Source of the DNA: an uncultured Clostridia bacterium
Lineage (GTDB): Bacteria > Bacillota > Clostridia > Christensenellales > UBA1242
Length of the DNA stretch: 64,000 nt
Assembly (NCBI GenBank): GCA_934747765.1
Contig: CAKVGZ010000003.1
Location: 64,225 to 128,224, forward strand
Direction: 5' to 3'
Shown here: one piece after another, positions 3,670 to 58,139 of the stretch
Numbering within the stretch: position 1 is the stretch's first letter
How the letters are laid out: every line of letters begins with the position of its first letter
Program-made: the position numbers and the translations under genes
The notes under the pieces: generated by a model
Database searches by the model: none
What the model was told of the DNA's origin: nothing
What the model saw: only the letters and a program-made list of their open reading frames with translations

Positions 3670-4500
3670 ATGAAAAAGTTACTTGCCGTTTTGATGATTT
3701 TGTTTTGTTCTTTGCCTTTGGTTGGGTGCACTTCCGCACGCAATCTTTCTTCTGTTAACACAAAAATTTCTTCGCTCTATCTTGTTGCAGATTTGTCGGA
3801 ATCTAAACTTTCTTCCATGACTAGCGAAGAAAAATCTGCAGTTAAATCGGCCTTCGAAACTCAATCTAACAAATATTTGCTCGAATTGAAAACTAGATAT
3901 TATAATGCTCTTGAAGAGCAAGCGGATTTGGGCAAGATAACGTCAAACGAAAAAGTTTTGCTTAAAAATCACATGTCAGACTATGTTAGATGGGACGAAA
4001 ATAAATTTATTATTGAGCTCAAATTTTATTCAACTTTTGCTTCAAAAATTTTCCTTGAAAGTGGAGCAGGTTTTCAAATTGAAAACAAGGAAGAAATGTT
4101 TTGCACAAAAACATATGTTTCCTATGGCCAAATTTTTTCAAAGACGCCAAATAATATAATAACAACAAATATTGAGGATTTTTTTAATAACAAGATTAAA
4201 GACAATTTGGCAACATTGGGCGATAGCAAACTTGAAAACATAAACTATTACAATTTGATTGTTTCTGAGAGTCCGATTATTCATGCAACTGGAACGACGG
4301 ATGAAGTGTCTGTGGGCGATAAATCTGTGTTTTGCTACGATTCAAGCAAAGAACTCTTCGATTTCTATGTTGTTCAAGCAAACACACTTGTATATTATCT
4401 CTTGGCGCTTGCCATAACATTTGTGTTCATTTCAACATATTTAGTTGTGATATATTTCAAAAAAGATAAAAAAGAAGACGAGAATTTTGAAATAGAATGA
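3670..4500 (+). CDS. lipoprotein with a C-terminal TM helix; hypothetical
   Basis: Signal peptide with a lipobox (LPLVGC), and a hydrophobic C-terminal helix (LLALAITFVFISTYLVVIYF). Confidence 0.45.
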   Translation: MKKLLAVLMILFCSLPLVGCTSARNLSSVNTKISSLYLVADLSESKLSSMTSEEKSAVKSAFETQSNKYLLELKTRYYNALEEQADLGKITSNEKVLLKNHMSDYVRWDENKFIIELKFYSTFASKIFLESGAGFQIENKEEMFCTKTYVSYGQIFSKTPNNIITTNIEDFFNNKIKDNLATLGDSKLENINYYNLIVSESPIIHATGTTDEVSVGDKSVFCYDSSKELFDFYVVQANTLVYYLLALAITFVFISTYLVVIYFKKDKKEDENFEIE

Positions 4501-6546: not shown

Positions 6547-7116
6547 ATGGAACTTAAAGTTTGGGCAAAAACTATGTTGACGGTTCAAAGACATCTTGGA
6601 AAGGTCACCAAGGCGCTAGATCACGTGATTTACAAAAAGGCAATTGCTTCGATGTTTGTCAATTCAAAAAATCTTCACGAAAACAGCGGTGAGGCAGTTA
6701 GTAAATTTATTATTAATTTGATGGACAGCAAAATTAATTTAATCAATCTCAACACTATTTGTGTTAACGGACTTAAAAAAATTGATAAAACTTGCGCTAA
6801 AATTTTGATTTTAAAACATATTGATGGGAGAACTAGCAACGACATTGCAAAATTGCTCGGCTTGAGCGACAGAACTTATTTCAGACGCCTTAACAAAGCA
6901 TATGAAGAATTTGAAAATTATTTAAGGGAGAATAATTTTACAGATGAATATTTTATAAAACGTTATTCATCTGAAGGTTGGATAATGGAAGTTCATGACA
7001 AATGTTTGGAATTTTTTGAAAGTGGAAATTCTGAAAATGAAATTTTTTCTTCAAATTTTGATTGTTTAAGAATTATAAAAAATATAAAAAAATCCATTCA
7101 TTCGTCATATTCATAA
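6547..7116 (+). CDS. phage-type transcriptional regulator with a sigma-70 region-4-like HTH (ArpU/RinA-like late-gene activator family)
   Basis: C-terminal HTH (TSNDIAKLLGLSDRTYFRRLNKAYEEFENYL). RBS is AAGGAG. It sits directly upstream of a terminase gene. Confidence 0.45.
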   Translation: MELKVWAKTMLTVQRHLGKVTKALDHVIYKKAIASMFVNSKNLHENSGEAVSKFIINLMDSKINLINLNTICVNGLKKIDKTCAKILILKHIDGRTSNDIAKLLGLSDRTYFRRLNKAYEEFENYLRENNFTDEYFIKRYSSEGWIMEVHDKCLEFFESGNSENEIFSSNFDCLRIIKNIKKSIHSSYS

Positions 7117-7961
7117 TAATCTTGATGTCGCAGTTTTTTCTTTCTTTTGCGAGGTTTGGATTCTGCTTCTTCCAAAGCGCGTGCGGTGATTTTCGTTGGT
7201 TTGAAAAGAAGATAGATAATCACAACGCATGGCAAACAAACTGCAACAATTATTATTATTTGAGTTGTTGATGGAAGAGAACTGAGTCCACTTTCTTCAA
7301 CTTGATTTGCTGGTGCTTGGGTTGGAACGGTGAAGTCGGGTTCTTCAATTTCTTCAAGAAGTTCGGTGTTTGAAGGAATTGTGGTTAATAGGTCGCAAAA
7401 CGCGCCATAAACGTATCCAAAAACTTCGCTTCCGTTTCTGATATATTTACAATAAAACCAAGTTGATGATTTGTGTGAAATTGCTTCTTCGCCGTCAATA
7501 GTTCCATAATATCTCAAATTTGTTTCGAGAAATGGCAATGTTTCGATTGTGTTAAGACCTTCCGATTGCGACGGGCTTGAACGAAGTGCAGTGCCTCCTG
7601 GAATGAAAACTCGGAAACTTGCATTTGCAAATGGTGTTTGAGGCACTCCTTTAACGCATTTTACTTCACTTTTTTTCACGTAACCAGTTTTATCTAAATA
7701 TCTTGCCGTGAAAAAATTGGAATTTTCACAACTTGAAATTTCAACAAAATATGTTTGAGGGATGACAAAAAAAATGTTTGAAACTTCTTCACTTCCGTTG
7801 GTTGATCGATATAGTTTTACGTTTGATGAAACAATTTGGGCATAGTAAACCTGTGACACAGCGCACACATAAGATGGTTTTGATTTTGGAAGCAAAAGCA
7901 CAGCGACAAGAAAAATTGATATTAAAAAAACAGTTGTTTTCTTAAATATTTTTGCGGTCAT
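7098..7961 (-). CDS. membrane-anchored protein with two SH3b-like domains; hypothetical
   Basis: N-terminal signal/TM, two ~70-aa segments matching an SH3b-like pattern (V.LYRS.NGS...GYVKKSEV), then a C-terminal TM helix and a basic tail. Confidence 0.35.
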   Translation of the reverse strand: MTAKIFKKTTVFLISIFLVAVLLLPKSKPSYVCAVSQVYYAQIVSSNVKLYRSTNGSEEVSNIFFVIPQTYFVEISSCENSNFFTARYLDKTGYVKKSEVKCVKGVPQTPFANASFRVFIPGGTALRSSPSQSEGLNTIETLPFLETNLRYYGTIDGEEAISHKSSTWFYCKYIRNGSEVFGYVYGAFCDLLTTIPSNTELLEEIEEPDFTVPTQAPANQVEESGLSSLPSTTQIIIIVAVCLPCVVIIYLLFKPTKITARALEEAESKPRKRKKKLRHQDYYEYDE

Positions 7962-10961: not shown

Positions 10962-11900
10962 ATGATGTTTAAGAATTCAACTAAATTATTAGTTGCCAAC
11001 TTCTCGATTGTTTGGAAGTTGATTCTTTATTATATCATTGTTTTTGGAATCACAATTGGCCTCATCGCTCCTTTCTTCACTCAAATTGGTGAAGCTTTTA
11101 ATGGAGCAGGGCTTTTGGATGAAATTGGATCTTTGCTAACAAATTTTAATGTTTCGGTCAATCCTTTCAAATTGGTCGTTAATCTTAATGATGCGTTCAC
11201 AAACATCTTCAGCTTGTTGCTAGGATTTTTGAAATCTAACACTGTTGTAGCGCTTTATGTTTGCTTTGTTGCTTTATATTTGTTCCCATTCCTTTTAAGT
11301 CTTGCCGATTTGCCAGTTGGTCAAGTTCTTTTTGGCTACATGTCTAGTCTAACAAAATATTCTTTCACAGGCTCATATCTCAAATATCTTTCACGTTCTG
11401 TTAGATATCAACTTTTGAAACAACTTCTTTTGTTGCCTTTCAACATTTTGATTGTTCTTGCATTTGTCTATGCTTTGCGCCTTGTGACGCTCGCTTCATG
11501 GATGATATATATCATGCCTCTTATTCTTGTGACCATAATTGTCACATTGAGCGGACTTAAGAAGACCATTTTTTCTGGATGGACACCAGCAATTGTTGTT
11601 TATGATTGCAACATGTTCAAAGGATTTAAAAAAGGGATTAAAGCAGTTTCAAGAAGATTTTTGAAAGTCTTTTCAACTTCACTTATGATAATGTTAATTG
11701 GCATTGCTGTGACATATTTGTTTGGGACTTTCGTGTTCCCAATAATTTTCCCATTCTTTGCATCATTCTTCTATGTTTTTGAAATGGTCATGTTCTATGG
11801 AAGCCAAGGAATGAGATATTATGTTGACTTGGACACAATACTTTCTCCAAAACGACTTGAAGAAAATGACCCATATAAAAAAGTTAGATATATAATTTAA
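10962..11900 (+). CDS. polytopic membrane protein; hypothetical
   Basis: 312 aa with at least 6 hydrophobic helices. Confidence 0.4.
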   Translation: MMFKNSTKLLVANFSIVWKLILYYIIVFGITIGLIAPFFTQIGEAFNGAGLLDEIGSLLTNFNVSVNPFKLVVNLNDAFTNIFSLLLGFLKSNTVVALYVCFVALYLFPFLLSLADLPVGQVLFGYMSSLTKYSFTGSYLKYLSRSVRYQLLKQLLLLPFNILIVLAFVYALRLVTLASWMIYIMPLILVTIIVTLSGLKKTIFSGWTPAIVVYDCNMFKGFKKGIKAVSRRFLKVFSTSLMIMLIGIAVTYLFGTFVFPIIFPFFASFFYVFEMVMFYGSQGMRYYVDLDTILSPKRLEENDPYKKVRYII

Positions 11901-11956: not shown

Positions 11957-13813
11957 ATGAACGAAAATGAAAATTTATTGCATCAAGAAGGTGCAAATTC
12001 TGAAGTTGTGCCTTCAGAAATTAAGCACGAAAAAAAGCACATAAAACAATTTGCAATTCGCAAAAAACCTACAAAAAGTGCACCTCAAAATGCAACTGAA
12101 AGCCAGCAAAACTCGAATGAATTGAGCGAAACAAAAATTGTTAAATCCTCACAACCAAAATCCAAAAAATCTTTGAAGGTAACTTTCCTTGGCGGAGTTG
12201 GAGAAATTGGAAAAAACATGACCGCAATTGAATACGACAATGAAATAATTGTTATTGATGGCGGACTTTCTTTTCCAACTGGCGAATTCCCTGGGATTGA
12301 CCTTGTTGTGCCTGACATTTCATATTTGCTTGCTAACAAATCAAAGGTTAAAGCAATTGTTTTGACTCACGGACATGAAGACCACATCGGCGGGCTTCCA
12401 TATATTTTGAATGAACTCAAAGTTCCAGTTTATGGCTCTGCAATGACTCTTGCACTTCTCGACAACAAAATGCAAGAACATAGGCTTGAATATAGGGGAA
12501 TTAGGGTTAAACCAAAAAATCTTTTGAAATTGGGCAATTTCCAAATTGAGTTTATCAACGTGAGCCATTCAATCGCTGGCGCTCTTGCGCTTGCAATCAC
12601 AACTCCAGTTGGAACTCTTGTTCACACCGGCGACCTTAAAATTGATTTCACTCCAGTTGACGGAGTTATAACGGATCTGACAAGATTTGGCGAACTTGGA
12701 AAAAAAGGTGTTAAACTTCTTCTTTGCGAAAGCACCAATGTTTGCAGAAAAGGCTATTCCATGAGTGAAGCAAAAGTTGGACAAACTTTGGAACAATTGT
12801 TTGAAAAATTTGTTGGGAAAAGACTTTTTGTTGCAACATTTGCATCCAATGTTCACAGACTGCAACAACTTCTTCGCCTTGCCGAAAAATTTAAACGTAA
12901 GGTGATATTTGCGGGAAGAAGCATGGTGAATGTCACAGAAGCGGCAGCAAAAATTGGTGAAATTTCCTATAACAAAGAAAATATCGTTGAGATGGACAAA
13001 ATTGACAAGTTTGCTGACGGAGAAATCTTGGTGCTTTGCACTGGAAGTCAAGGCGAACCTTTGAGCGCTCTTACTAGAATGGCGCATGGAGAATTTCCAA
13101 AAGTGAAACTTGGCGAAGGAGATGTTATTATTTTCTCTGCGTCACCAATTCCTGGAAATGAAAAAGCAGTTTATGGTGTTATAAACGAATTGTTCAAAAA
13201 AGGCGCAGATGTCATCTATGACGAACTTGCCGACGTTCATGCTTCTGGCCACGCTTGTCAAGAAGAACTTAAAACAATTCATGCATTAACAAACCCAAGA
13301 TTTTTCATTCCTGTACACGGGGAATATCGTCATCTCAAACAACACAAAGAACTTGCAATGGCAATGGGCATGAATGCAAGAGATATCATTTTGCCTGAAC
13401 TTGGAATGCAAGTTGAAGTTGGCGAAAATTTCATCCGTCAGGCTGGATATGTTTCGGCGGGAATACGCCTTGTTGATGGATATGGGCTTGGCGACCTTGG
13501 AAGTTCTGTTTTGAAAGAAAGAAAACAACTTTCTGAAGAAGGTTTCTGTGTTGCTGTTATAAATATGAGTTCGCTTTCGGGTGAAGCAGGATTTGAACCT
13601 TTCATAATCACTCGTGGGGTGGTTTATGAAAAAGAGTCCGAGGCGTTCACTCAAGATGCAAGAGCAGTCATTTCGAAGGCTTTGAAAGAACAAGACTTAA
13701 GAGCGTTTGACCCAAATGAAATTAAAGCAAACATAAAAAAAGTTCTTTCGAACTTTATCTACAAACGCACAAAAAGAAGACCAATGATTATCGCAATTTT
13801 GCTTATGGCTTAA
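11957..13813 (+). CDS. rnjA: ribonuclease J (metallo-beta-lactamase/beta-CASP RNase) with an ~65-aa low-complexity N-terminal extension
   Basis: LGGVGEIGKNM, HxHxDH (LTHGHEDHIGGL), a beta-CASP domain and the RNase J C-terminal domain. Confidence 0.9.
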   Translation: MNENENLLHQEGANSEVVPSEIKHEKKHIKQFAIRKKPTKSAPQNATESQQNSNELSETKIVKSSQPKSKKSLKVTFLGGVGEIGKNMTAIEYDNEIIVIDGGLSFPTGEFPGIDLVVPDISYLLANKSKVKAIVLTHGHEDHIGGLPYILNELKVPVYGSAMTLALLDNKMQEHRLEYRGIRVKPKNLLKLGNFQIEFINVSHSIAGALALAITTPVGTLVHTGDLKIDFTPVDGVITDLTRFGELGKKGVKLLLCESTNVCRKGYSMSEAKVGQTLEQLFEKFVGKRLFVATFASNVHRLQQLLRLAEKFKRKVIFAGRSMVNVTEAAAKIGEISYNKENIVEMDKIDKFADGEILVLCTGSQGEPLSALTRMAHGEFPKVKLGEGDVIIFSASPIPGNEKAVYGVINELFKKGADVIYDELADVHASGHACQEELKTIHALTNPRFFIPVHGEYRHLKQHKELAMAMGMNARDIILPELGMQVEVGENFIRQAGYVSAGIRLVDGYGLGDLGSSVLKERKQLSEEGFCVAVINMSSLSGEAGFEPFIITRGVVYEKESEAFTQDARAVISKALKEQDLRAFDPNEIKANIKKVLSNFIYKRTKRRPMIIAILLMA

Positions 13814-17135: not shown

Positions 17136-18434
17136 ATGTCGATTTTTAAGAATAGCAAATTTTTGTGCATTGTTTTGTTTGTTGTTCCAATTTTTGTTCT
17201 TGCCCTTGCAATCGGATTAACAGTTGGGCTGGGGAATGCAAACAAAAAAACAATTAGTTTTGAAACAAGTGAAAATGGGGGAATTTATATTGTTGGAAAC
17301 GTGGCAACGAAAAATTCTGACGGAACTTATTCGATAAAGAAATATTCAGATTTTGAGATTGTTGTGGTGCCAAAAAACGGTTACAAAATTTCCAAAATTT
17401 TTGTTAATGAAAAGGAAATTGAAGTTTCAACTGCCGATGGTGACAGGCAATATGTTCAAATCGACCGTCTTTCAGACGACCTGAAAGTGAGTGCGCAATA
17501 TGAACTTAGGTCTTATGAAATTTCGACTTCTGCTGGAGAAAATGGAACAATAACAGAAACATTCCACGCCAAGTTTGGCGAAACAAAAACTGTTTTGGTA
17601 ACCCCAAATTCAAATTACAAAATTTCAAAGATAACAGTTGATGGGCAAGACGTTGAGGTGACGGCAGGTGACGGCGAAAGTCAAATTGTTACGTTAGAAA
17701 ATATTTCAAGCAAACATAACATTTCTGCTTCGTTTAGTCCAATTGAATTTGAAATTGCAAATAATGTGATAAATCCAGAAGGTGGGGTTGTTGATGTCCA
17801 AACAAAAAGTGCGTTTGGCGAACAAGTTTTGGTGATAGTTTCAAAGAATGCTGGCTATAACATCAAATCAGTTGTTGTTAAAGCAAATGGCATAACAGTT
17901 CCTGTTTCATCGCAAACAGAACTCTCGGGAATTTACGTTTTCACAATGCCAGCGGGAAATGTTGTGGTTGAAGTTGAATTTGAAAAAATCCAATATTCAA
18001 TTCAAAAAGAAACAGAAGAATCAACATATTCTGTTTCAAAAACAACAGGTGTTGTTGGAGAAGAGATAACAATAACAACAAGTCCTCAAGAGGGTTACAT
18101 GGTTGACCAAATTGTGGTTAAAAGTGGAGAATTGGCAATTGTTGTTGCCGAAGGCAAGTTCATTATGCCAGCGGGAAATGTGACCGTTAAGGTGACCTTT
18201 AAAAAGATAGATTATTCAATTTCTAAAGTTGAAGCGGAAAACGGAACATTCAGCGTTCCAACAACTGCTCAAATAAACGATGTTGTTGAAATCATCATTA
18301 ACCCAAGTGCAGGATTTGTTCTTGGAACAATTTCTGTTAAAAAGGGCGACGAAACAATTGCTGTTTCTGCGGAGAACAAGTTTATTATGCCGGCAGGAGA
18401 TGTTCAAGTCACAGTCACATTTGTTGCTGAATAG
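17136..18434 (+). CDS. membrane-anchored surface protein with 4-5 tandem ~85-aa beta-rich repeats (Listeria-Bacteroides/InlB B-repeat-like)
   Basis: N-terminal TM helix. Repeats end in F(I/T)MPAGNV.V.V.F, with GY.I...VV motifs. Confidence 0.4.
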   Translation: MSIFKNSKFLCIVLFVVPIFVLALAIGLTVGLGNANKKTISFETSENGGIYIVGNVATKNSDGTYSIKKYSDFEIVVVPKNGYKISKIFVNEKEIEVSTADGDRQYVQIDRLSDDLKVSAQYELRSYEISTSAGENGTITETFHAKFGETKTVLVTPNSNYKISKITVDGQDVEVTAGDGESQIVTLENISSKHNISASFSPIEFEIANNVINPEGGVVDVQTKSAFGEQVLVIVSKNAGYNIKSVVVKANGITVPVSSQTELSGIYVFTMPAGNVVVEVEFEKIQYSIQKETEESTYSVSKTTGVVGEEITITTSPQEGYMVDQIVVKSGELAIVVAEGKFIMPAGNVTVKVTFKKIDYSISKVEAENGTFSVPTTAQINDVVEIIINPSAGFVLGTISVKKGDETIAVSAENKFIMPAGDVQVTVTFVAE

Positions 18435-18487
18435 ATATTGACAAATAGTTATTTTTTGTTTATAATAATGAAAAAAGGAGATATGTT

Positions 18488-18649
18488 ATGTACAAAAACG
18501 GAAAACCAGTTGAAAATAAAAAAAGCAAAATTGACCCAAACACTTTTTTGCCAATTGAAGAAAAGAAAGAAGTTGGTGTTAAATCGGACAGAAGAAAAAT
18601 TGGAAAAGAAAAATTGACAAAACAAGAACAAAGAGAATTAGATTTTTAA
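18488..18649 (+). CDS. small basic protein (53 aa); hypothetical. Below the ORF-track size cutoff.
   Basis: AAAGGAG RBS about 8 nt upstream of the ATG. Translates as MYKNGKPVENKKSKIDPNTFLPIEEKKEVGVKSDRRKIGKEKLTKQEQRELDF. Confidence 0.25.
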   Translation: MYKNGKPVENKKSKIDPNTFLPIEEKKEVGVKSDRRKIGKEKLTKQEQRELDF

Positions 18650-22458: not shown

Positions 22459-23589
22459 ATGGCAAACAAAAACTATTATGAAACATTGGGAGTTGACAAA
22501 AACGCTAGCGCCGACGATATAAAGTCGGCGTATCGTCGTCTTGCAAAGAAATATCATCCTGATTTGAACAAAGACAACAAAGAAGCCGCAGAAAAATTCA
22601 AAGAAATCAACGAAGCTTATGAAGTTTTGGGCGATGAGAAAAAACGTTCCAACTACGACCAATTTGGCTCGGCAGAAGGTCAGCCAAACTTTGGAGATTT
22701 CTTTGGTGGGAATGGCGGATTTTCGTCAGGTGGATTTTCTGAAGGATTTGGCGGATTTGGTGACCTCTTTGGCGACCTTTTTGGAGCATTTGGCGGAAGA
22801 GGAAAAACCATTGAAAGAGGCGAAGATATTGAACTTCAAATGAACCTTTCGTTTGAAGAGGCAGTTTTTGGGGTTGAAAAAGATATCACAATTTCAAAAA
22901 TTGAAAAATGTTTGACTTGCAAGGGAACAGGTGCAAAAAATGGAACTCAGTTCACAACTTGTTCAACTTGCCATGGAACGGGACGTGTTCGCTACACTCA
23001 ACAAACACTTTTTGGAACAGCAATTCAAGATGGTCCTTGCAGAGCATGTAATGGAACAGGAAAAATTGTCAAAGAGAAATGTGATGAATGTGGTGGAAAG
23101 GGCTACAAGAAAGTTGTTAAAACAATCAAGATAAAAATCCCAGCCGGAATAAACGATGGGCAAACAATCACCATGCGTGGCGAAGGAAACGCACCTTTGA
23201 AAGAGGGTGTTTCGGGGGATTTAAGAATATATATCCGAGTTATGCCACACAAAGTTCTTGTGAGAAACGGCTTTGACCTTAATCTTGAATTGTATGTTCC
23301 ATACACTCTTGCGCTTCTTGGAGGGAAAGTTAAAATTCCAACATTAAATGGGGATTATAACCTTGAAATAAAACCTCTCACTCAAAGCGGAACAATCATG
23401 CGCCTCAAAGGAAAAGGTGTTAAGATTTTGAACAAAAGCTCCTATGGTGACCTTATTGTTACAGTTAAAATTGAACTTCCAAAATCACTCGACAAAAAAT
23501 CTTTGCAGTTGGTCCAAGAACTTGAAAAACTTGGAAGCGAAAAAACATATGCTAAATATAGCGCATATTTAGACAAAACAAAAAACTAG
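22459..23589 (+). CDS. dnaJ: co-chaperone DnaJ
   Basis: J-domain with HPD, a G/F-rich region and four CxxCxGxG zinc-finger repeats. Confidence 0.95.
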
Positions 23590-23625
23590 GCAAGATATAA
23601 CAATTTGATGCTAGCAAAATCAAGC

Positions 23626-23666
23626 CAAAAACACTTTATTTAGGTAAATAAAGTGTTTTTTTAAAT
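23626..23666 (+). terminator. rho-independent terminator after dnaJ
   Basis: Hairpin AAACACTTTATTT/AAATAAAGTGTTT followed by TTTTTTT. Confidence 0.6.
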
Positions 23667-23783
23667 TGTTTCTTCTTTAATTATGTGCCTTTCCAAGGCA
23701 TAAAAGTAGCATAAAAAAGAGAACTAGATTTATTACTAATTCTCTTAATTATTGCACTAGCTATATGTTATTTCAATGGGGGA

Positions 23784-24566
23784 TTACTCTCTTTCTTGTT
23801 CTGGTTCTGGCTTTTGTTTTGGCGGATTAGGAAAGGCTCTCATTAAAGTTTCTGTTACTATTCCTTCATATGCCACAATAGTTTCATGTTTGTATTTTTG
23901 AGGATGGACTAACATATAGTTGTATAAATATATATTTTTAATATCTTGAGTATGAAGTGGCAAAATATAATTAAGTTTTTGAATTGTGTCATTTATATAA
24001 AGAGTATGTGTTTGCGCTTCATCTAGCTCCTCGGCAGAAAAATTATTTCCATAAGATTTGATAAGTGAAGCAACTGCAGTTGTGGAAGTTTTTCGTGCAA
24101 AATTTCCTATGGGATTATGAAGACTAAGATAATACATAAGTTCTTCCTGATACTGTTCAGACATTATGTATCCAGCAAGATAACGTTTAAATTCTGTGCT
24201 CAATTTAGTCCAGAAAATTGGATGAAATTTATTTTCAATTAGACAACGTTGACATGCCATTTCCACGTTAAGGAGCATCAAATTATCCAGCCCACTTCCT
24301 GATGTTATAGAGTCTAAACTTAAGATTGCTTTAGGACCCCTTGGCTGTGAAAATACCGTTCCGTTAGAAGGGGTAGACAAACGATTGAAAAGGTTATTAA
24401 AAAATTTAGATGATAGACCAATTCCAGCTTTTTTCGCAATCTTGTCAGCTTTTAAAATAACAAGATTTATACGTTGTTCAAGATTAAGATTTTGCCAAAC
24501 ATCTTTGGTAAAACCCAATTCGCAGTTCTCAGGTTTTGTATATTTTATATATTCTAAATGTTCCAT
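23784..24566 (-). CDS. hypothetical protein, paralog A of the adjacent gene (ENCELGF family). The HExxH site is replaced by VEMAC.
   Basis: 260 aa sharing ENCELGF, ILSLD and IHPE/QY blocks with the 24674-25630 product. A perfect-consensus promoter (TTGACA-N17-TATAAT) sits 6 nt before the ATG. Confidence 0.5.
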   Translation of the reverse strand: MEHLEYIKYTKPENCELGFTKDVWQNLNLEQRINLVILKADKIAKKAGIGLSSKFFNNLFNRLSTPSNGTVFSQPRGPKAILSLDSITSGSGLDNLMLLNVEMACQRCLIENKFHPIFWTKLSTEFKRYLAGYIMSEQYQEELMYYLSLHNPIGNFARKTSTTAVASLIKSYGNNFSAEELDEAQTHTLYINDTIQKLNYILPLHTQDIKNIYLYNYMLVHPQKYKHETIVAYEGIVTETLMRAFPNPPKQKPEPEQERE

Positions 24567-24673
24567 GGTTACATTATATATGCTTTTCGGAGAAATGTCA
24601 ATACCTTTTAAAAAATCTTCATCAACTCACATTTGACAATAAATCGTATGCTAGTCCACCATGTTAGTTTTTT

Positions 24674-25630
24674 TTAATTCATGTAACAATCATAATCGTT
24701 TTGTTGACTCAATGTGAAGAATTTTTTCAAACTTTCTGTGACTTTGTTTTCGCAACGGTTAATTTCTGTGAATCGGTACTGTTCTGGATGAATCAACATT
24801 TCGTTAAATATGTATATATCCTCAATTTGTTTGTTGTTAAGACTCAAGTGACCTACAACTTTATTTTCAAGATTCTTATTGTATGCAATTGACTGTTGAG
24901 CCATAAACAATTCGTCATTAGAAAAATAATTTCCATAAAAATTGAGAAAATTCTTGGCATTATCATCGGAATAATCTCTGGCACTTTGTTCGATAGGATT
25001 AAGATAATAAATGTCAAACATGATTTGTTTCTTCAGGTTTTCATCTTTAATGTGACTATCAAGATATGATTTAAAGTTTGAATCTAAATTATTCCAATAA
25101 TATGAAGGAATATATTGATTATAAATTTTGTCAATAACATGTTTCATTTCGTGGCAAAGAGTCATAAAATTTTCCACACCACTTCTTTTTTCAAGAGCAT
25201 CCAAACTCAAAATCATTTTGCAATCTTCTCGTGTTGTGAATGCCGTTCCGCGAACATCTTCAGACAAACTTTTGTTGAGGTCAGTGAAGAATCCGACCGT
25301 TGAAAGTTTGTCTTCAACATCAACAAATCTTGCCAGCTTTTTGGCGGTCATTAAAAGAAGTTTTCCGCGTTGTTCAATTTCAAGACTTTGCCAAATGTTT
25401 TCAACAAAACCCAATTCGCAGTTTTCCATCGTTAAAAAGTCCATTCTATGTTCGCTTTTTTGATAGTTTATTGGATTAATAATCAAAGGTCTAACTTTTG
25501 TGAAAACAAAGAAGTTTGATATTTCATTAAGTTGAGTCATGTTCGCCATTCTCAACATTTTAGTGAAATCGTTTTTTATATATCCTCTTTCTGCATCAAT
25601 GCAGTGATTTTGAAATACTTTAAGATACAT
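24674..25630 (-). CDS. hypothetical protein, paralog B (ENCELGF family), with an HExxH motif (LCHEMKH); possible zincin-like metallopeptidase
   Basis: The start is assigned to Met (MYLKVFQ), which lies 6 nt downstream of TTGACA-N17-TATAAT. The six-frame ORF extends to 25756 and would overlap the mtaB start. Confidence 0.45.
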   Translation of the reverse strand: MYLKVFQNHCIDAERGYIKNDFTKMLRMANMTQLNEISNFFVFTKVRPLIINPINYQKSEHRMDFLTMENCELGFVENIWQSLEIEQRGKLLLMTAKKLARFVDVEDKLSTVGFFTDLNKSLSEDVRGTAFTTREDCKMILSLDALEKRSGVENFMTLCHEMKHVIDKIYNQYIPSYYWNNLDSNFKSYLDSHIKDENLKKQIMFDIYYLNPIEQSARDYSDDNAKNFLNFYGNYFSNDELFMAQQSIAYNKNLENKVVGHLSLNNKQIEDIYIFNEMLIHPEQYRFTEINRCENKVTESLKKFFTLSQQNDYDCYMN

Positions 25631-25714
25631 GGTTAAATTATATATGTTTTTTTGGAAAATGTCAACATTGTTTAAAGATTTGACATTTTTAGACAAAAAG
25701 TTTAAACTGTTTTC

Positions 25715-26980
25715 ATGAAAATTGTAATTCACACTCTTGGTTGCAAAGTTAATCAATATGAAAGCGACTCAATTGCGCTTGGGCTGATGAACAAAGGTCA
25801 CCAAGTTTCGTCAAACCTTGAAAAAGCTGATGCATATATAATTAACACTTGCGCAGTAACAAATGAAGCAGAAAAGAAATCGCGACAAGTTTTGGCTAAG
25901 GTTCACAGGTTGAATCCAAATGCCAAAATTTATGTTTGTGGGTGTGCCAGTCAAAAAGATGCATCAAAGTTTTTGAAAAATAAAAATGTTATTTTTGTGA
26001 GCGGAGTTGCGAACAAACTGAAGCTTATTGACCAAATTGACAAAAAACGCAGGCAACAAAAAGTTGAAGTTGACCGTCTTCCAAAAGATTACAATGAAAC
26101 ATACATTTCAAAACCTTCAAAAACAAGGGCATACATAAAAATTCAAGATGGATGCAACAATTTTTGTTCCTATTGCATTATTCCTTATTTAAGAGGAAGA
26201 AGCAGGTCGAGAAATGTTGTTGAAATTTTGAATGAAATTGAAATTCTTCAAGAATCGGCAAAAGAAATTGTTCTAACGGGAATCGACATTTCGGACTATA
26301 AGATTGACGGCAAGCCAGCACTTGGCAAGTTGCTCAAAATGCTTGGTGATTACAACATAAGAATTCGTCTTGGGTCGCTTGAACAGGGAGTTATAACTGA
26401 CGAGTTTTTGCAAGTTGCAAGTGAAATGAAAAACCTTTGCCCGCATTTCCATCTATCACTTCAAAGTGGGAGCGACAGTATTTTGAAAATGATGAACAGG
26501 CACTACACAACTGAACAATTCTATCAAACTGTTGTTGCTCTTAGAAAAATATTTGTTAATCCTTCCATAACAACAGATATTATTGTTGGATTTCCAGGAG
26601 AAACAGACGAAGACTTTAAACAAACAATTGATTTTGTTAAAAAAGTTAAATTTTCGTCCATTCACGTTTTCCCATATTCAAAACGTGAAGGAACAGTTGC
26701 TTCGCGATTTAAAGATTTGGATGGAGAAACAAAAAATAAACGAGTTTTGATTTTGGAAAAAATTAAAGAAAAACTTCAAAAAGATTATCTAAAACTTTCA
26801 AGAAAAACTCCACATTCTGTTTTGATTGAACAAAAAGAAGGGAATTATTTTGTTGGGCACAGCGAAAATTATATAAAATGTTACATCAAAGCAAAGGATT
26901 TGGAGCTGAACTCTTTTGTTAATGTAAAAATTAAAAAACCATATATCGATGGCGCAATTGCCAAAATTTGTAAGAGGTAG
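25715..26980 (+). CDS. mtaB: threonylcarbamoyladenosine tRNA methylthiotransferase MtaB (MiaB-like radical SAM plus TRAM)
   Basis: MTTase N-domain (IHTLGCKVNQYES), radical SAM motif CNNFCSYC and a C-terminal TRAM-like domain. Length and lack of a MiaB-specific N-terminus favour MtaB. Confidence 0.75.
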   Translation: MKIVIHTLGCKVNQYESDSIALGLMNKGHQVSSNLEKADAYIINTCAVTNEAEKKSRQVLAKVHRLNPNAKIYVCGCASQKDASKFLKNKNVIFVSGVANKLKLIDQIDKKRRQQKVEVDRLPKDYNETYISKPSKTRAYIKIQDGCNNFCSYCIIPYLRGRSRSRNVVEILNEIEILQESAKEIVLTGIDISDYKIDGKPALGKLLKMLGDYNIRIRLGSLEQGVITDEFLQVASEMKNLCPHFHLSLQSGSDSILKMMNRHYTTEQFYQTVVALRKIFVNPSITTDIIVGFPGETDEDFKQTIDFVKKVKFSSIHVFPYSKREGTVASRFKDLDGETKNKRVLILEKIKEKLQKDYLKLSRKTPHSVLIEQKEGNYFVGHSENYIKCYIKAKDLELNSFVNVKIKKPYIDGAIAKICKR

Positions 26981-27381: not shown

Positions 27382-28665
27382 ATGGCAAAAAAAAGATACT
27401 TGTATGCTCACAAAAAGTCATTAAAAAATTTACAAGAAGACGATTTTAACTATTTTTATTCCCCAAAATATGCAAAAATTATTGCAGAAAGATATGGAAT
27501 GAATAATAATGGCGTTGAAGATGCTTTTAAAATGTATTTTGATGCGTTAAAAGATTTTGGGCTTATAGAACATATAAACAAGCACATGTTCAGAAGGAAC
27601 GTGGAAAGTGTGTTTTTTCAAAAATATCGCACTTTTGGAGAGAATATGGCATGTGTTGGGGCTGCAACATCATTTGAAAATGAAATTTCAATTAGGAATT
27701 CTTTCAGAAAGGGTAATTTTTCAGATTTATTTCATGAATTTAATCATCTAATTTTGATGCAAGAAGAAAAACTTGCACATAACAAATTTGCTTTTTCAAC
27801 AGGTTTTAATGAAGAAATAGTTCAAGAAATTAGAAATGATGATAGTAAAAAAATAACGCAAGATGAAGATAGGATAATTTATCAAGAAATTAACAGATTT
27901 ATGGGATTTAATGAAGGCGTGACAGAATTGCTTGCAAATATGTTAGTTTCAAAAATTCAAAAAAAACCAGTTGTTTCAAAAGCCTATTTTGACGGTGTTG
28001 GTAATGTAAAAATGTTATATAACATAGTTGGACCAGCGCTGTTCAAGGCCTATGTTCAAGGAAATTTTGATGTCCTCGAAAGGTCCGGGGGGGGGATTAC
28101 AAGCGACCAGTTCAAGGCGCTTGCGGATTTGTTTGACCCGGAAGAAGAATTCGAAAATCCAGAAGATTATTTTGACAATGATTTTGAAATCAAGCTTGAA
28201 TTAATACAAATGTTGCAAACAAAGATAAAAAATGATGCAAAAAATGTTCATTTTGAAAGTTATGAAGAACTTGAAAAAGCAATTGGCAAGGCATACACAA
28301 TTTTTGCAGGTTCAGCAAGATTTTCAGACAAAAGAAACTCGGTTGAAACACTAAGAAACAAGCCAGATTTCTTAGACGAGTTAACGGAGAGTTTTGTTAA
28401 TACGGTTGTGGAAATTTCAGAAGACAAAGGAATAGAAGTTGAATTGGATGACGAAAGAATTGATTCATATTTCGAAACTTTCAAATTTTATAACGAAAAC
28501 GAATATTTCTTGGTGTATGCAAACGAACCATATTTAGATTTGGAAAAATTTAAAAATGAACAATGCATATATGCAACAAACTCTGGAAAAGCAGACTACA
28601 TAAGAAAGAAAGGAAAAATTGATTACGGAATAGACTACAACATTTTAGAGCAAGCAAATTTTTAG
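27382..28665 (+). CDS. hypothetical protein with HExxH (LFHEFNH) and a downstream FNEGVTE motif; possible metallopeptidase
   Basis: Own promoter (TTGACT-N17-TAGAAT) and RBS AAGGGAG. 427 aa. Confidence 0.35.
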   Translation: MAKKRYLYAHKKSLKNLQEDDFNYFYSPKYAKIIAERYGMNNNGVEDAFKMYFDALKDFGLIEHINKHMFRRNVESVFFQKYRTFGENMACVGAATSFENEISIRNSFRKGNFSDLFHEFNHLILMQEEKLAHNKFAFSTGFNEEIVQEIRNDDSKKITQDEDRIIYQEINRFMGFNEGVTELLANMLVSKIQKKPVVSKAYFDGVGNVKMLYNIVGPALFKAYVQGNFDVLERSGGGITSDQFKALADLFDPEEEFENPEDYFDNDFEIKLELIQMLQTKIKNDAKNVHFESYEELEKAIGKAYTIFAGSARFSDKRNSVETLRNKPDFLDELTESFVNTVVEISEDKGIEVELDDERIDSYFETFKFYNENEYFLVYANEPYLDLEKFKNEQCIYATNSGKADYIRKKGKIDYGIDYNILEQANF

Positions 28666-28674
28666 GAGGTAAAT

Positions 28675-29325
28675 ATGACTGTGATACCATACGACCCAAA
28701 AGATTGGTGGAGAATGAACATAAAATCAACTCCACATGCACCTGGTGGGGTGGTCCCATACAACGAAGAAGAATGGTATAACTCAAAGTTGAGAGTTCTT
28801 TACAAAAACGTTTTGAAAAGAATTGGCATCGATGAAAACAAATATTATGCGCCCTACACAATTGCCGAAAGATTGGGAATTATGTGTGTTGAGGGCGAAT
28901 GTGAAGAAGGAACAATTGGCTTCTACACTGTTCATTGTGACGAAGAAACGTCGGAATTGGAAAAGGTTGCAATTTTTCCAAAAGAAGTTTTTCATGACAT
29001 GAAAGAATTTAACAAAAGTTTGTCTTTCATGCTTGCGGTTGATTTTATTAACTTGGTTGAATTGAAGAACGATTTTGAAACTCAAAAAGCAGTTGAAAAG
29101 CTTTTCAAAAAGGCAAAAGAAGTTGCCAAAAAGATCGATCCAAACTTTGTTCTTTCTGATGAAAAGAAAAAAGAGCTTGAAAGCATATATATTTCTCAGC
29201 AAAGTGAAATGAGCGTCAATGTTCCTGTTGACTATGAAACTTTGCTTAACGAATATTCAAGTGTTTCAGCTTTGATTGATATAATCAACAAATATGGGCA
29301 AAAAGACGAACAAAAAATATTTTAA
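28675..29325 (+). CDS. hypothetical protein co-transcribed with the upstream HExxH protein
   Basis: The ATG lies 9 nt after the preceding stop, with RBS GGAGG. 216 aa. A terminator follows. Confidence 0.35.
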   Translation: MTVIPYDPKDWWRMNIKSTPHAPGGVVPYNEEEWYNSKLRVLYKNVLKRIGIDENKYYAPYTIAERLGIMCVEGECEEGTIGFYTVHCDEETSELEKVAIFPKEVFHDMKEFNKSLSFMLAVDFINLVELKNDFETQKAVEKLFKKAKEVAKKIDPNFVLSDEKKKELESIYISQQSEMSVNVPVDYETLLNEYSSVSALIDIINKYGQKDEQKIF

Positions 29326-57314: not shown

Positions 57315-58139
57315 TTAGTCTATATTTTCTTCAGAGATTTCCAAAACTTCAGATTCTTCTTCTTTTTGTTTTAAGGAAGATTTTAAACTTTGTTCTTTGA
57401 TTGGAAGAGTAACTGAAAAATTGTTTGCTTGATTTTGGGAATAGATAATTTTGCTGTCGCCGTTTTTGCTTTCAACTTTTCCTTCAATTTGTGCATCAAT
57501 TTTGGAGTTGCCCATAAGCAGGTCAATGTTTCCGTTGTTTTGGCTACAAATTTTTGTTTGGTCGCATACTTTTCCAATTGTTCCATTGTTGATTGTGCCA
57601 ACAACAGATTTGTTCAGCAAATGTTCAATTGTGCCATTCATTATTGTTGTTATTTTTGCATTGTCTTCAAGAGCGAATATTTCGCCATCAATAAGTGTGC
57701 CAATTTTTGCGTTGTTTCTGATGTACAAAATTTTTCCACTGTTAAAAGTTGTCACTTTCGATTTGTCGTCCATGAACTTAATGCTTCCAGAATTGAAGGT
57801 TCCAATTTTGGATTTGTTCTTTAAATAATCAATTTCAGCATTATTAACTGTTGTTAGTTTTGCTTTGCCTTCAACATTTGTTATCGTTCCAGTTTTAAGC
57901 ATTCCAACTGTTGCTTTTCCTTTCAAAAGTTTGATTGAGCCACTGTTAAAAACATGAACAACGGCTTTGCCCGAAATTTCGTCGAAGTTTGAATTTGTTG
58001 TTTCAAGAACAACAACTTTTCCAGTTGCCACAACATTGTTGCAGTTGTCCAAAAAATGTTTGCCTTCTTTTAAAACCAGGTCGTTTTCACCTTTATGGAA
58101 CACTGGTTCTTCATCTTTTTTCTTAATAAAAAGTGCCAT
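57315..58139 (-). CDS. beta-solenoid repeat protein (bactofilin/DUF4097-like, ~17-18-aa repeats); hypothetical
   Basis: At least 10 tandem repeats of the form NG.I..L...SKIGT. Confidence 0.4.
   Translation of the reverse strand: MALFIKKKDEEPVFHKGENDLVLKEGKHFLDNCNNVVATGKVVVLETTNSNFDEISGKAVVHVFNSGSIKLLKGKATVGMLKTGTITNVEGKAKLTTVNNAEIDYLKNKSKIGTFNSGSIKFMDDKSKVTTFNSGKILYIRNNAKIGTLIDGEIFALEDNAKITTIMNGTIEHLLNKSVVGTINNGTIGKVCDQTKICSQNNGNIDLLMGNSKIDAQIEGKVESKNGDSKIIYSQNQANNFSVTLPIKEQSLKSSLKQKEEESEVLEISEENID

Follow-up and report, generated by a model that had tools for sequence, protein, structure and literature searches.

In Firmicutes, the canonical order hrcA-grpE-dnaK-dnaJ-prmA-rsmE-mtaB (Bacillus subtilis yqeT-yqeU-yqeV) joins mtaB to the genes that begin with hrcA. 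A stretch of 64,000 nucleotides (nt) from an uncultured Clostridia bacterium (contig CAKVGZ010000003.1, positions 64,225 to 128,224; hereafter the window) resembles this cluster in having hrcA-grpE-dnaK-dnaJ and then mtaB on one strand, but prmA and rsmE are missing, and a gene called here paralog B lies on the opposite strand between dnaJ and mtaB. A second, related minus-strand gene, paralog A, occupies the space between B and dnaJ. Two further described systems are relevant to this pair. Gluzincins, among them the M32, M1 and M48 families and minigluzincins such as selecase, are recognized by an HExxH motif in one helix and, about 50 residues further on, a Glu in a second helix. Genomes that frequently use leaderless transcripts form the "group C" of GeneMarkS-2, in which the Pribnow box lies 6-8 nt from the start and which accounts for 3.4% of Firmicutes (PMC6028130).

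The explanation that best fits the locus combines a zincin-like enzyme (B), leaderless expression and an inserted degenerate paralogue (A), and taken as a whole it is judged moderately probable. B would be a cytoplasmic protein that binds a metal through H160, H164 and E214 and uses E161 as catalytic base, acting as a zincin/gluzincin-like hydrolase and probably as a peptidase. It would be inherited vertically beside mtaB, with fast change mainly in its N- and C-terminal regions, and transcribed from a consensus sigma-A-type promoter into an mRNA whose 5' end is the A of the AUG and which is translated without a Shine-Dalgarno sequence. A would be a remote paralogue, brought in on a self-contained cassette of 1.07 kb that includes a promoter and terminators of its own. 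In one strain lineage this cassette would have entered the terminator hairpin separating B from dnaJ, and A, if functional at all, would serve as a non-catalytic pseudoenzyme. The elements on which this account turns are the following.

23784 to 24566, minus strand: paralog A, 260 amino acids (aa) from an ATG start, by its residues a catalytically degenerate family member
24573 to 24601, minus strand: promoter of A, TTGACA-N17-TATAAT, matching at 12 of 12 positions, its -10 hexamer ending 6 nt 5' of the ATG
24674 to 25630, minus strand: paralog B, 318 aa from the promoter-defined ATG, a probable zincin-like metal hydrolase
25637 to 25665, minus strand: promoter of B, TTGACA-N17-TATAAT, matching at 12 of 12 positions, its -10 hexamer ending 6 nt 5' of the ATG; kept at the related loci L001-L008 and L010
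25631 to 25756, minus strand: non-coding 5' extension of the six-frame open reading frame (ORF) of B, beginning with a TTG at 25756, overlapping mtaB by 42 nt and containing the B promoter
25680 to 25708, plus strand: promoter of mtaB, TTGACA-N17-TAAACT-N6-ATG, back to back with the B promoter, the -35 hexamers being 14 nt apart
25715 to 26980, plus strand: mtaB (UPF0004 and radical SAM domains), the conserved divergent partner of B

An alignment of 237 residues gives A and B an identity of 37% (E 4e-45) and shows the common blocks ENCELGF, WQxLxxEQR and ILSLD; the final common block is LIHPEQY in B and LVHPQKY in A. The first-pass annotation of this DNA had proposed two paralogous minus-strand genes between dnaJ and mtaB, each preceded by TTGACA-N17-TATAAT-N6-ATG and devoid of a Shine-Dalgarno sequence, and the sequence agrees with every part of that description. 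Both genes start with ATG, the 6-nt gap of neither contains a Shine-Dalgarno or G-rich element, and an Rfam scan of the window was negative for RNA elements near the locus. The architecture common to A and B is well beyond chance. Perfect copies of TTGACA-N17-TATAAT occur at three sites in 64 kb, where shuffled sequences average 0.01, and the longer pattern TTGACA-N14-ATATATAAT-N-TAACCATG is confined in the same 64 kb to the A and B promoters (0 expected). Counted from the -35 hexamer through the ATG, the upstream regions of A and B agree at 32 of 38 positions, far above what a protein identity of 37% would predict for unconstrained DNA. The third perfect site (18438-18466, plus strand) lies 5' of a 53-aa Lys-rich ORF (18488-18649) that is also called in relatives; its gap between -10 hexamer and ATG is 21 nt.

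The longest six-frame ORF of B (24674-25756, minus strand; 360 aa) begins with TTG and would run 42 nt into the start of mtaB (ATG 25715), exactly as had been reported. The accompanying suggestion that the promoter-defined start removes this overlap is borne out by the orthologues: 318 aa is the called length in all four B orthologue clusters of a database of 5.8 billion proteins, and the upstream frame is closed in the 53%-identical B orthologues of L001 and L008, in the latter by an in-frame TAA two codons 5' of the ATG, inside the promoter. Because the frame upstream of the orthologues is closed, the 42-codon 5' extension in the window is non-coding, and the true start of paralog B is the promoter-defined ATG at 25630. 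Both genes have a host-like G+C content, and neither encodes a hydrophobic segment; B has an N-terminal extension of 56 residues that A lacks.

Paralog A differs from B in its history, which is recorded at the boundaries of the DNA that carries it.

23586 to 23593, unstranded: right half of the ancestral hairpin (TTGCCTAG on the minus strand), including the dnaJ stop codon TAG at 23587-23589
23594 to 24664, unstranded: A cassette of 1,071 nt (promoter, gene and two terminators), in the loop of a CTAGG...CCTAG hairpin, where it replaces GGCG
23627 to 23660, unstranded: perfect 16-nt inverted repeat with A and T runs at its flanks, a likely bidirectional terminator in the A cassette
23717 to 23746, minus strand: terminator-like hairpin with a T run, immediately 3' of A

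The gene order in related assemblies is dnaJ, a slot, B and then mtaB-HIT-p427-p216-rimP-nusA. This slot is empty in L002, L003, L005 and L008, is filled in L004 by tyrS with about 720 nt of non-coding DNA 5' of it, and is occupied by A in the window, L006 and L007 alone; it looks like a recurrent insertion site. The insert of L004 (10958-12988) has imperfect inverted repeats of about 30 nt at its ends (10983-11012 and 12944-12973), and Rfam detected no T-box before its tyrS. Genomes with B alone have 16 nt between the B stop and the dnaJ stop and share the hairpin AAAAACTAGG-CGTTG-CCTAGTTTTTT, the two halves of which are parted in the window by the 1,071 nt of the cassette. A is a derived insertion, since a deletion would not remake a perfect hairpin and the more distant L008 has B only. 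Nor is A a recent local duplicate, because the identity between A and B is as low as 37%, although synonymous divergence (dS) between the strains is 0.04-0.2. An origin by local tandem duplication was accordingly rejected, A being absent from L002, L003, L004, L005 and L008 and its divergence from B being too large; the initial picture of a tandem gene pair gives way to that of a cassette inserted in one strain lineage, whose divergence is far too great for an origin in situ.

Compared with other members of the family, A scores highest against the B clade (142-154 bits), followed by cluster P0004 (124 bits) and the distant members (38-47 bits), which implies that the donor of the cassette was an unsampled source. 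No convincing terminal repeats or target duplication mark the cassette as a mobile element, and a hidden Markov model search of all six-frame ORFs in the window and the related loci, including the non-coding gap of L004, gave no third copy or remnant of A or B. As the insertion split the ancestral hairpin, transcription of B may continue into A: the stretch from the B stop to the A promoter (24602-24673) has no evident terminator, and the insertion probably removed the terminator of B.

Judged by sequence searches, A and B belong to a tiny family, so far undescribed, whose members come from uncultured low-GC Clostridia and which lies outside all curated libraries. When 1.84 billion representative proteins were searched exhaustively with a profile, six clusters emerged (P0004, A and P0006-P0009), and a word-indexed profile search added nothing to these. 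A scan of GTDB genomes found one locus, whereas scans of viral contigs and of JGI metagenome contigs, as well as tblastn against phages and plasmids, gave no relatives. Distant members adjoin a recF-like gene fragment (L013), a gyrB-like gene (L012) or rplK-rplA (L009), all of them core-gene neighbourhoods. P0008 (L009, 1674-3899) is the second gene of a two-gene insert, after a 198-aa ORF, directly 3' of rplK-rplA.

The family alignment comprises ten sequences, in all of which F75, W80, E161, P212, A217 and S221 are invariant; N70, E72, G74, R88, H160, H164, D167 and E214 are nearly so. The family motifs are HExxHxxD and NPxExxA, and H160, H164, D167 and E214 are present in nine members, the sole exception being paralog A, which reads VEMACQRC and NPIGNFAR instead.

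25139 to 25153, minus strand: HEMKH codons of paralog B (H160-E161-x-x-H164)
24977 to 25000, minus strand: NPIEQSAR codons of paralog B; E214, a candidate for the third metal ligand, lies where a predicted helix begins
24252 to 24266, minus strand: VEMAC codons of paralog A, aligned with HExxH, both His gone and the Glu retained

LCHEMKH of B thus aligns with NVEMACQ of A, and the claim that B has an HExxH motif which A has lost can be extended to the conserved Asp and the downstream Glu. With both His, this amounts to four of the five conserved catalytic or metal residues.

These losses raise the question of whether A still does anything. It could be a decaying, non-functional remnant brought in by the insertion rather than a working pseudoenzyme, a reading that deserves serious attention but is, on the whole, rather unlikely. 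It would account for the disappearance of the four conserved residues and of the N-terminal extension, and for the restriction of A to one strain lineage and a single sequence. Against it, the ORF of 260 aa is intact, the family-invariant non-catalytic residues F, W, P, A and S are retained, and the gene keeps a 12/12 promoter at the exact leaderless spacing, an unstructured 5' end and terminators of its own. All known copies of A, on eight contigs, are one identical sequence, so selection on A is not measurable. As a pseudoenzyme, if it is functional, A would have parallels among protease paralogues such as iRhoms and inactive zincin homologues, which likewise retain the scaffold without metal or catalytic residues; A differs from these in being a strain-specific acquisition rather than a conserved partner.

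The enzymatic nature of B is approached through motifs and models, which make a metallopeptidase plausible. B appears to have a gluzincin-like site, supported at the level of motifs and weakly by predicted structure, and to be a member of no known family. The SprT-like family PF10263 is the sole recurring weak Pfam match (5 of 10 members, best E 5.8e-4); it spans a strand and the HExxH helix at residues 119-166 of B and scores 15.3 bits for B and 16.3 bits for P0006, below its gathering cutoff of 25.6 bits. The first AlphaFold model of B has a predicted local distance difference test score (pLDDT) of 64.6, and a core-only model reaches a pLDDT of 77.8 with a predicted template modelling score of 0.75. 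Both models place HEMKH (160-164) inside a predicted helix at residues 151-170 and let E214 open a predicted helix at 212-235. In Foldseek searches against the PDB, no match had E <= 0.001, and about 15 of the top 60 for the second model were zincins. The earlier proposal of a zincin-like metallopeptidase survives as regards the motif, found in nine of ten members, and the weak zincin matches; no family threshold is reached, however, and no fold match is confident.

Comparison with described peptidases places B near the gluzincins and at some distance from all of them. Like gluzincins, it is soluble and has HExxH in a predicted helix and a Glu in a later helix, within NPxExxA. In contrast to them, the B family shows no significant sequence or fold match, has an extra Asp (HExxHxxD) and a family-specific NCExGF...W..L..E.R block, its beta-sheet subdomain is not confidently modelled, and its activity is putative. 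With the SprT-like/Spartan/Wss1 proteins (PF10263) it shares the weakly matched strand-plus-HExxH-helix segment, but it lacks their third His, zinc ribbon and DNA-binding domain, and its putative third ligand is a distant Glu. An ImmA/IrrE-type assignment finds no Peptidase_M78 match, and the neighbours are dnaJ, mtaB and HIT rather than a helix-turn-helix repressor. As to a role in defence or as a toxin-antitoxin pair, neither A nor B has a match in PADLOC, and their context consists of core genes.

Several of these results weigh against the preferred account. A, B and all ten family members fall below threshold in Pfam, NCBIfam, PHROGs and PADLOC, and two profiles run against PDB sequences met no meaningful match to any solved structure. 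The segment expected to hold the zincin beta-sheet is modelled with low confidence (pLDDT < 50), so that a zincin fold is not established. In addition, the predicted start of transcription is placed by consensus geometry, the evolutionary rates described below come from few substitutions, and paralog A may be non-functional.

It is against this background that B can be read as something other than a peptidase, namely a protein whose His/Glu/His/Asp/Glu metal site serves a non-proteolytic hydrolase or a structural or regulatory role, possibly linked to mtaB. Such a reading would suit the divergent linkage to mtaB, kept across a MtaB identity of 67%, the absence of any significant fold or family match to a peptidase, and a model that is almost wholly helical. 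It is nevertheless unlikely, given that an HExxH helix followed by a Glu about 50 residues on in another helix is the gluzincin signature, that zincins are the sole recurring weak matches and that distant members do not lie beside mtaB.

In L010 and L011, the family member P0006 is likewise divergent to mtaB-HIT, whereas the other flank consists of plsC (acyltransferase), a pseudouridine synthase gene, gyrB and rplQ-rpoA, not dnaJ. Between these genomes and the window, MtaB is 67% and HIT 77% identical, compared with 28-30% for the B family. B is a vertically inherited, fast-evolving divergent partner of mtaB that travels with mtaB and not with dnaJ. Since this linkage holds even without the dnaJ flank, "prmA/rsmE replacement", as the first-pass annotation had framed the two genes, is the wrong description; the comparison of the dnaJ-mtaB interval, a check named beforehand, found B to be a conserved core neighbour. 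The absence of prmA and rsmE on which that framing relied is itself upheld in part: neither lies between dnaJ and mtaB, and a Pfam scan of 24 ORFs of the window showed neither, the remainder not having been searched exhaustively.

The pace at which B changes sets it apart from its neighbours. Its ratio of nonsynonymous to synonymous substitution rates (dN/dS), based like the others on few substitutions, is 1.10, 0.71 and 0.39 between the window and three strains and 0.30 against L008, while dnaJ, mtaB and nusA range over 0.02-0.12 and HIT over 0.05-0.25. In three comparisons with L002, the most divergent strain, the B core (residues 69-224) has a dN/dS of 0.12-0.14 and the termini 0.34-0.94. 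These values suggest a constrained core with termini that are weakly constrained or diversifying, and positive selection is not demonstrated. The dN/dS of p216, 0.4-1.6 between strains, is similar to that of B.

Rapid change of this kind is also what a genetic conflict might leave behind. In such a scheme, B would be a protease, for example a phage-sensing or effector one, and A a horizontally acquired dead mimic, serving as decoy, inhibitor or substrate trap for B or for the targets of B. The high dN/dS of B relative to its neighbours and its concentration in the termini, the different contents of the slot beside B in different strains, the retention by A of non-catalytic conserved residues and a perfect promoter, and the raised dN/dS of the adjacent ORFan p216 are all in keeping with this idea. 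Relaxed constraint, however, explains the raised dN/dS equally well; members of the family always lie among core genes (mtaB, recF-like, gyrB-like, rplK-rplA), most relatives have B without A, and PADLOC, PHROGs and the phage, plasmid and viral collections hold no match. A conflict pair is therefore very doubtful. Its bolder form, in which B is a rapidly diversifying cytoplasmic protease with variable termini suited to a changing target, for instance a protein of a phage or mobile element, A a dead mimic acting as decoy or inhibitor, and the whole a leaderless conflict module in a core-gene hotspot, must be called improbable.

For the preferred account, the remaining element is leaderless expression. 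A -10 hexamer at -12 to -7 places the A of the ATG at the canonical +1 position. As the -10 box of B ends 6 nt before its ATG, the mRNA of B would begin at the A of the AUG, and the same start is predicted for the transcript of A. The -10-N6-ATG spacing is kept in every mtaB-linked B orthologue, down to 28-30% protein identity. The six nucleotides themselves vary among orthologues (TTAACC, TAAACC, TAAATT, TTAGTT, GTAACC, ATAAAA), their number being constantly 6; in L010, P0006 (28-30% identical) is preceded by TTGACT-N18-TATAAT-N6-ATG. Because mtaB has the same -10-N6-ATG layout on the opposite strand, the 84-nt spacer between B and mtaB (25631-25714) amounts to two back-to-back promoters with apparently no untranslated region on either side. 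This back-to-back spacing is kept in L001, L008 and L010, the MtaB of L010 being 67% identical. Over its first 40 nt the mRNA of A is unstructured, and the B and mtaB mRNAs are unremarkable over the same length.

The same layout recurs elsewhere in the window. A promoter match ends 6-7 nt 5' of 9 of the 62 gene starts, compared with 0-2 at each other distance up to 60 nt, and 6-7 nt is thus the modal promoter position. In a scan of all 2,078 ATGs with a threshold of at least 9 of 12 matching positions, 18 had a promoter match 6-7 nt upstream, and 8 of these begin ORFs of at least 100 aa. The candidate starts, of which eight of nine use ATG, have a sigma-70-like promoter and lack a Shine-Dalgarno sequence; they are these.

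3670: ORFan
25715: mtaB
36201: dus
39230, minus strand: SDR
49454: HTH_3
51978, minus strand: RluA-like
25630, minus strand: paralog B
24566, minus strand: paralog A
58830: ninth leaderless-type start, with a weaker match and a GTG codon

The leaderless layout is found on first genes, and internal operon genes have ordinary AAGGAG-type sites. Two distant family members from other lineages, P0007 and P0008, have normal leaders with Shine-Dalgarno sequences, so the leaderless architecture belongs to the host lineage and not to the gene family. By these features the genome looks like a leaderless-rich "group C" Firmicute. It resembles known bacterial leaderless genes, whether of group C or of Actinobacteria and Deinococcus, in the -10 hexamer ending 6-7 nt before the ATG, the absence of a Shine-Dalgarno and the use of the layout by operon-first genes with AAGGAG-type sites within operons; it differs in its low-GC Clostridia-type host and consensus -35. 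The leaderless reading is well supported comparatively, but as a trait of the genome. What had been claimed for the pair therefore stands in so far as the spacing is conserved while the six nucleotides drift; it is not special to A and B, other gene starts sharing it. That the transcripts are instead leadered, with the hexamers inactive or the start elsewhere and the ATG used without a Shine-Dalgarno, has little probability, for although the promoter scans report consensus matches only and read-through from B, with no evident B-A terminator, could make a leadered A message, the 84-nt spacer fits only two back-to-back promoters, the 6-7 nt spacing at nine gene starts is deeply conserved while the N6 drifts, and eight of the nine starts are ATG, as leaderless translation requires.

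The surroundings of the pair contain further genes without described relatives. Downstream of the HIT gene lie two lineage-specific ORFans, p427 (27382-28665, plus strand) and p216 (28675-29325, plus strand), neither with a Pfam or PDB match. In p427, an HEFNH motif is followed about 21 residues on by GFNEE, a gluzincin-like spacing, and the protein has no detectable relation to A or B; as a third paralogue it was rejected at an hhalign probability of 0.6%, and p216 was rejected as a relative as well. Mid-sized ORFs without a Pfam match also occur at 3670-4500, 7098-7961, 10962-11900 and 57315-58139. Lineage-specific genes abound in the genome, so it is less remarkable that A and B are ORFans. 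A gene at 17136-18434 (plus strand), located between feoB and the hrcA operon, encodes a protein of 432 aa that has a hydrophobic segment near its N terminus and four divergent InlB B-repeat (Flg_new_2) domains.

None of these findings bears on a long-standing open question, and they are moderately interesting rather than surprising. Leaderless starts affect the calling of gene starts, as shown by the longest ORF of B, which is wrong by 42 codons. More broadly, a large proportion of the operon-first genes in this low-GC Clostridia-type organism appear to be expressed from leaderless transcripts, and the lineage offers a useful case for examining leaderless translation beyond Actinobacteria and Deinococcus. 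Should B be a working enzyme, it would represent a new and extremely narrow family of zincin-like hydrolases absent from curated libraries, and the natural pair of active and inactive paralogues, together with strains that have or lack the inactive copy, would offer a ready-made comparison.

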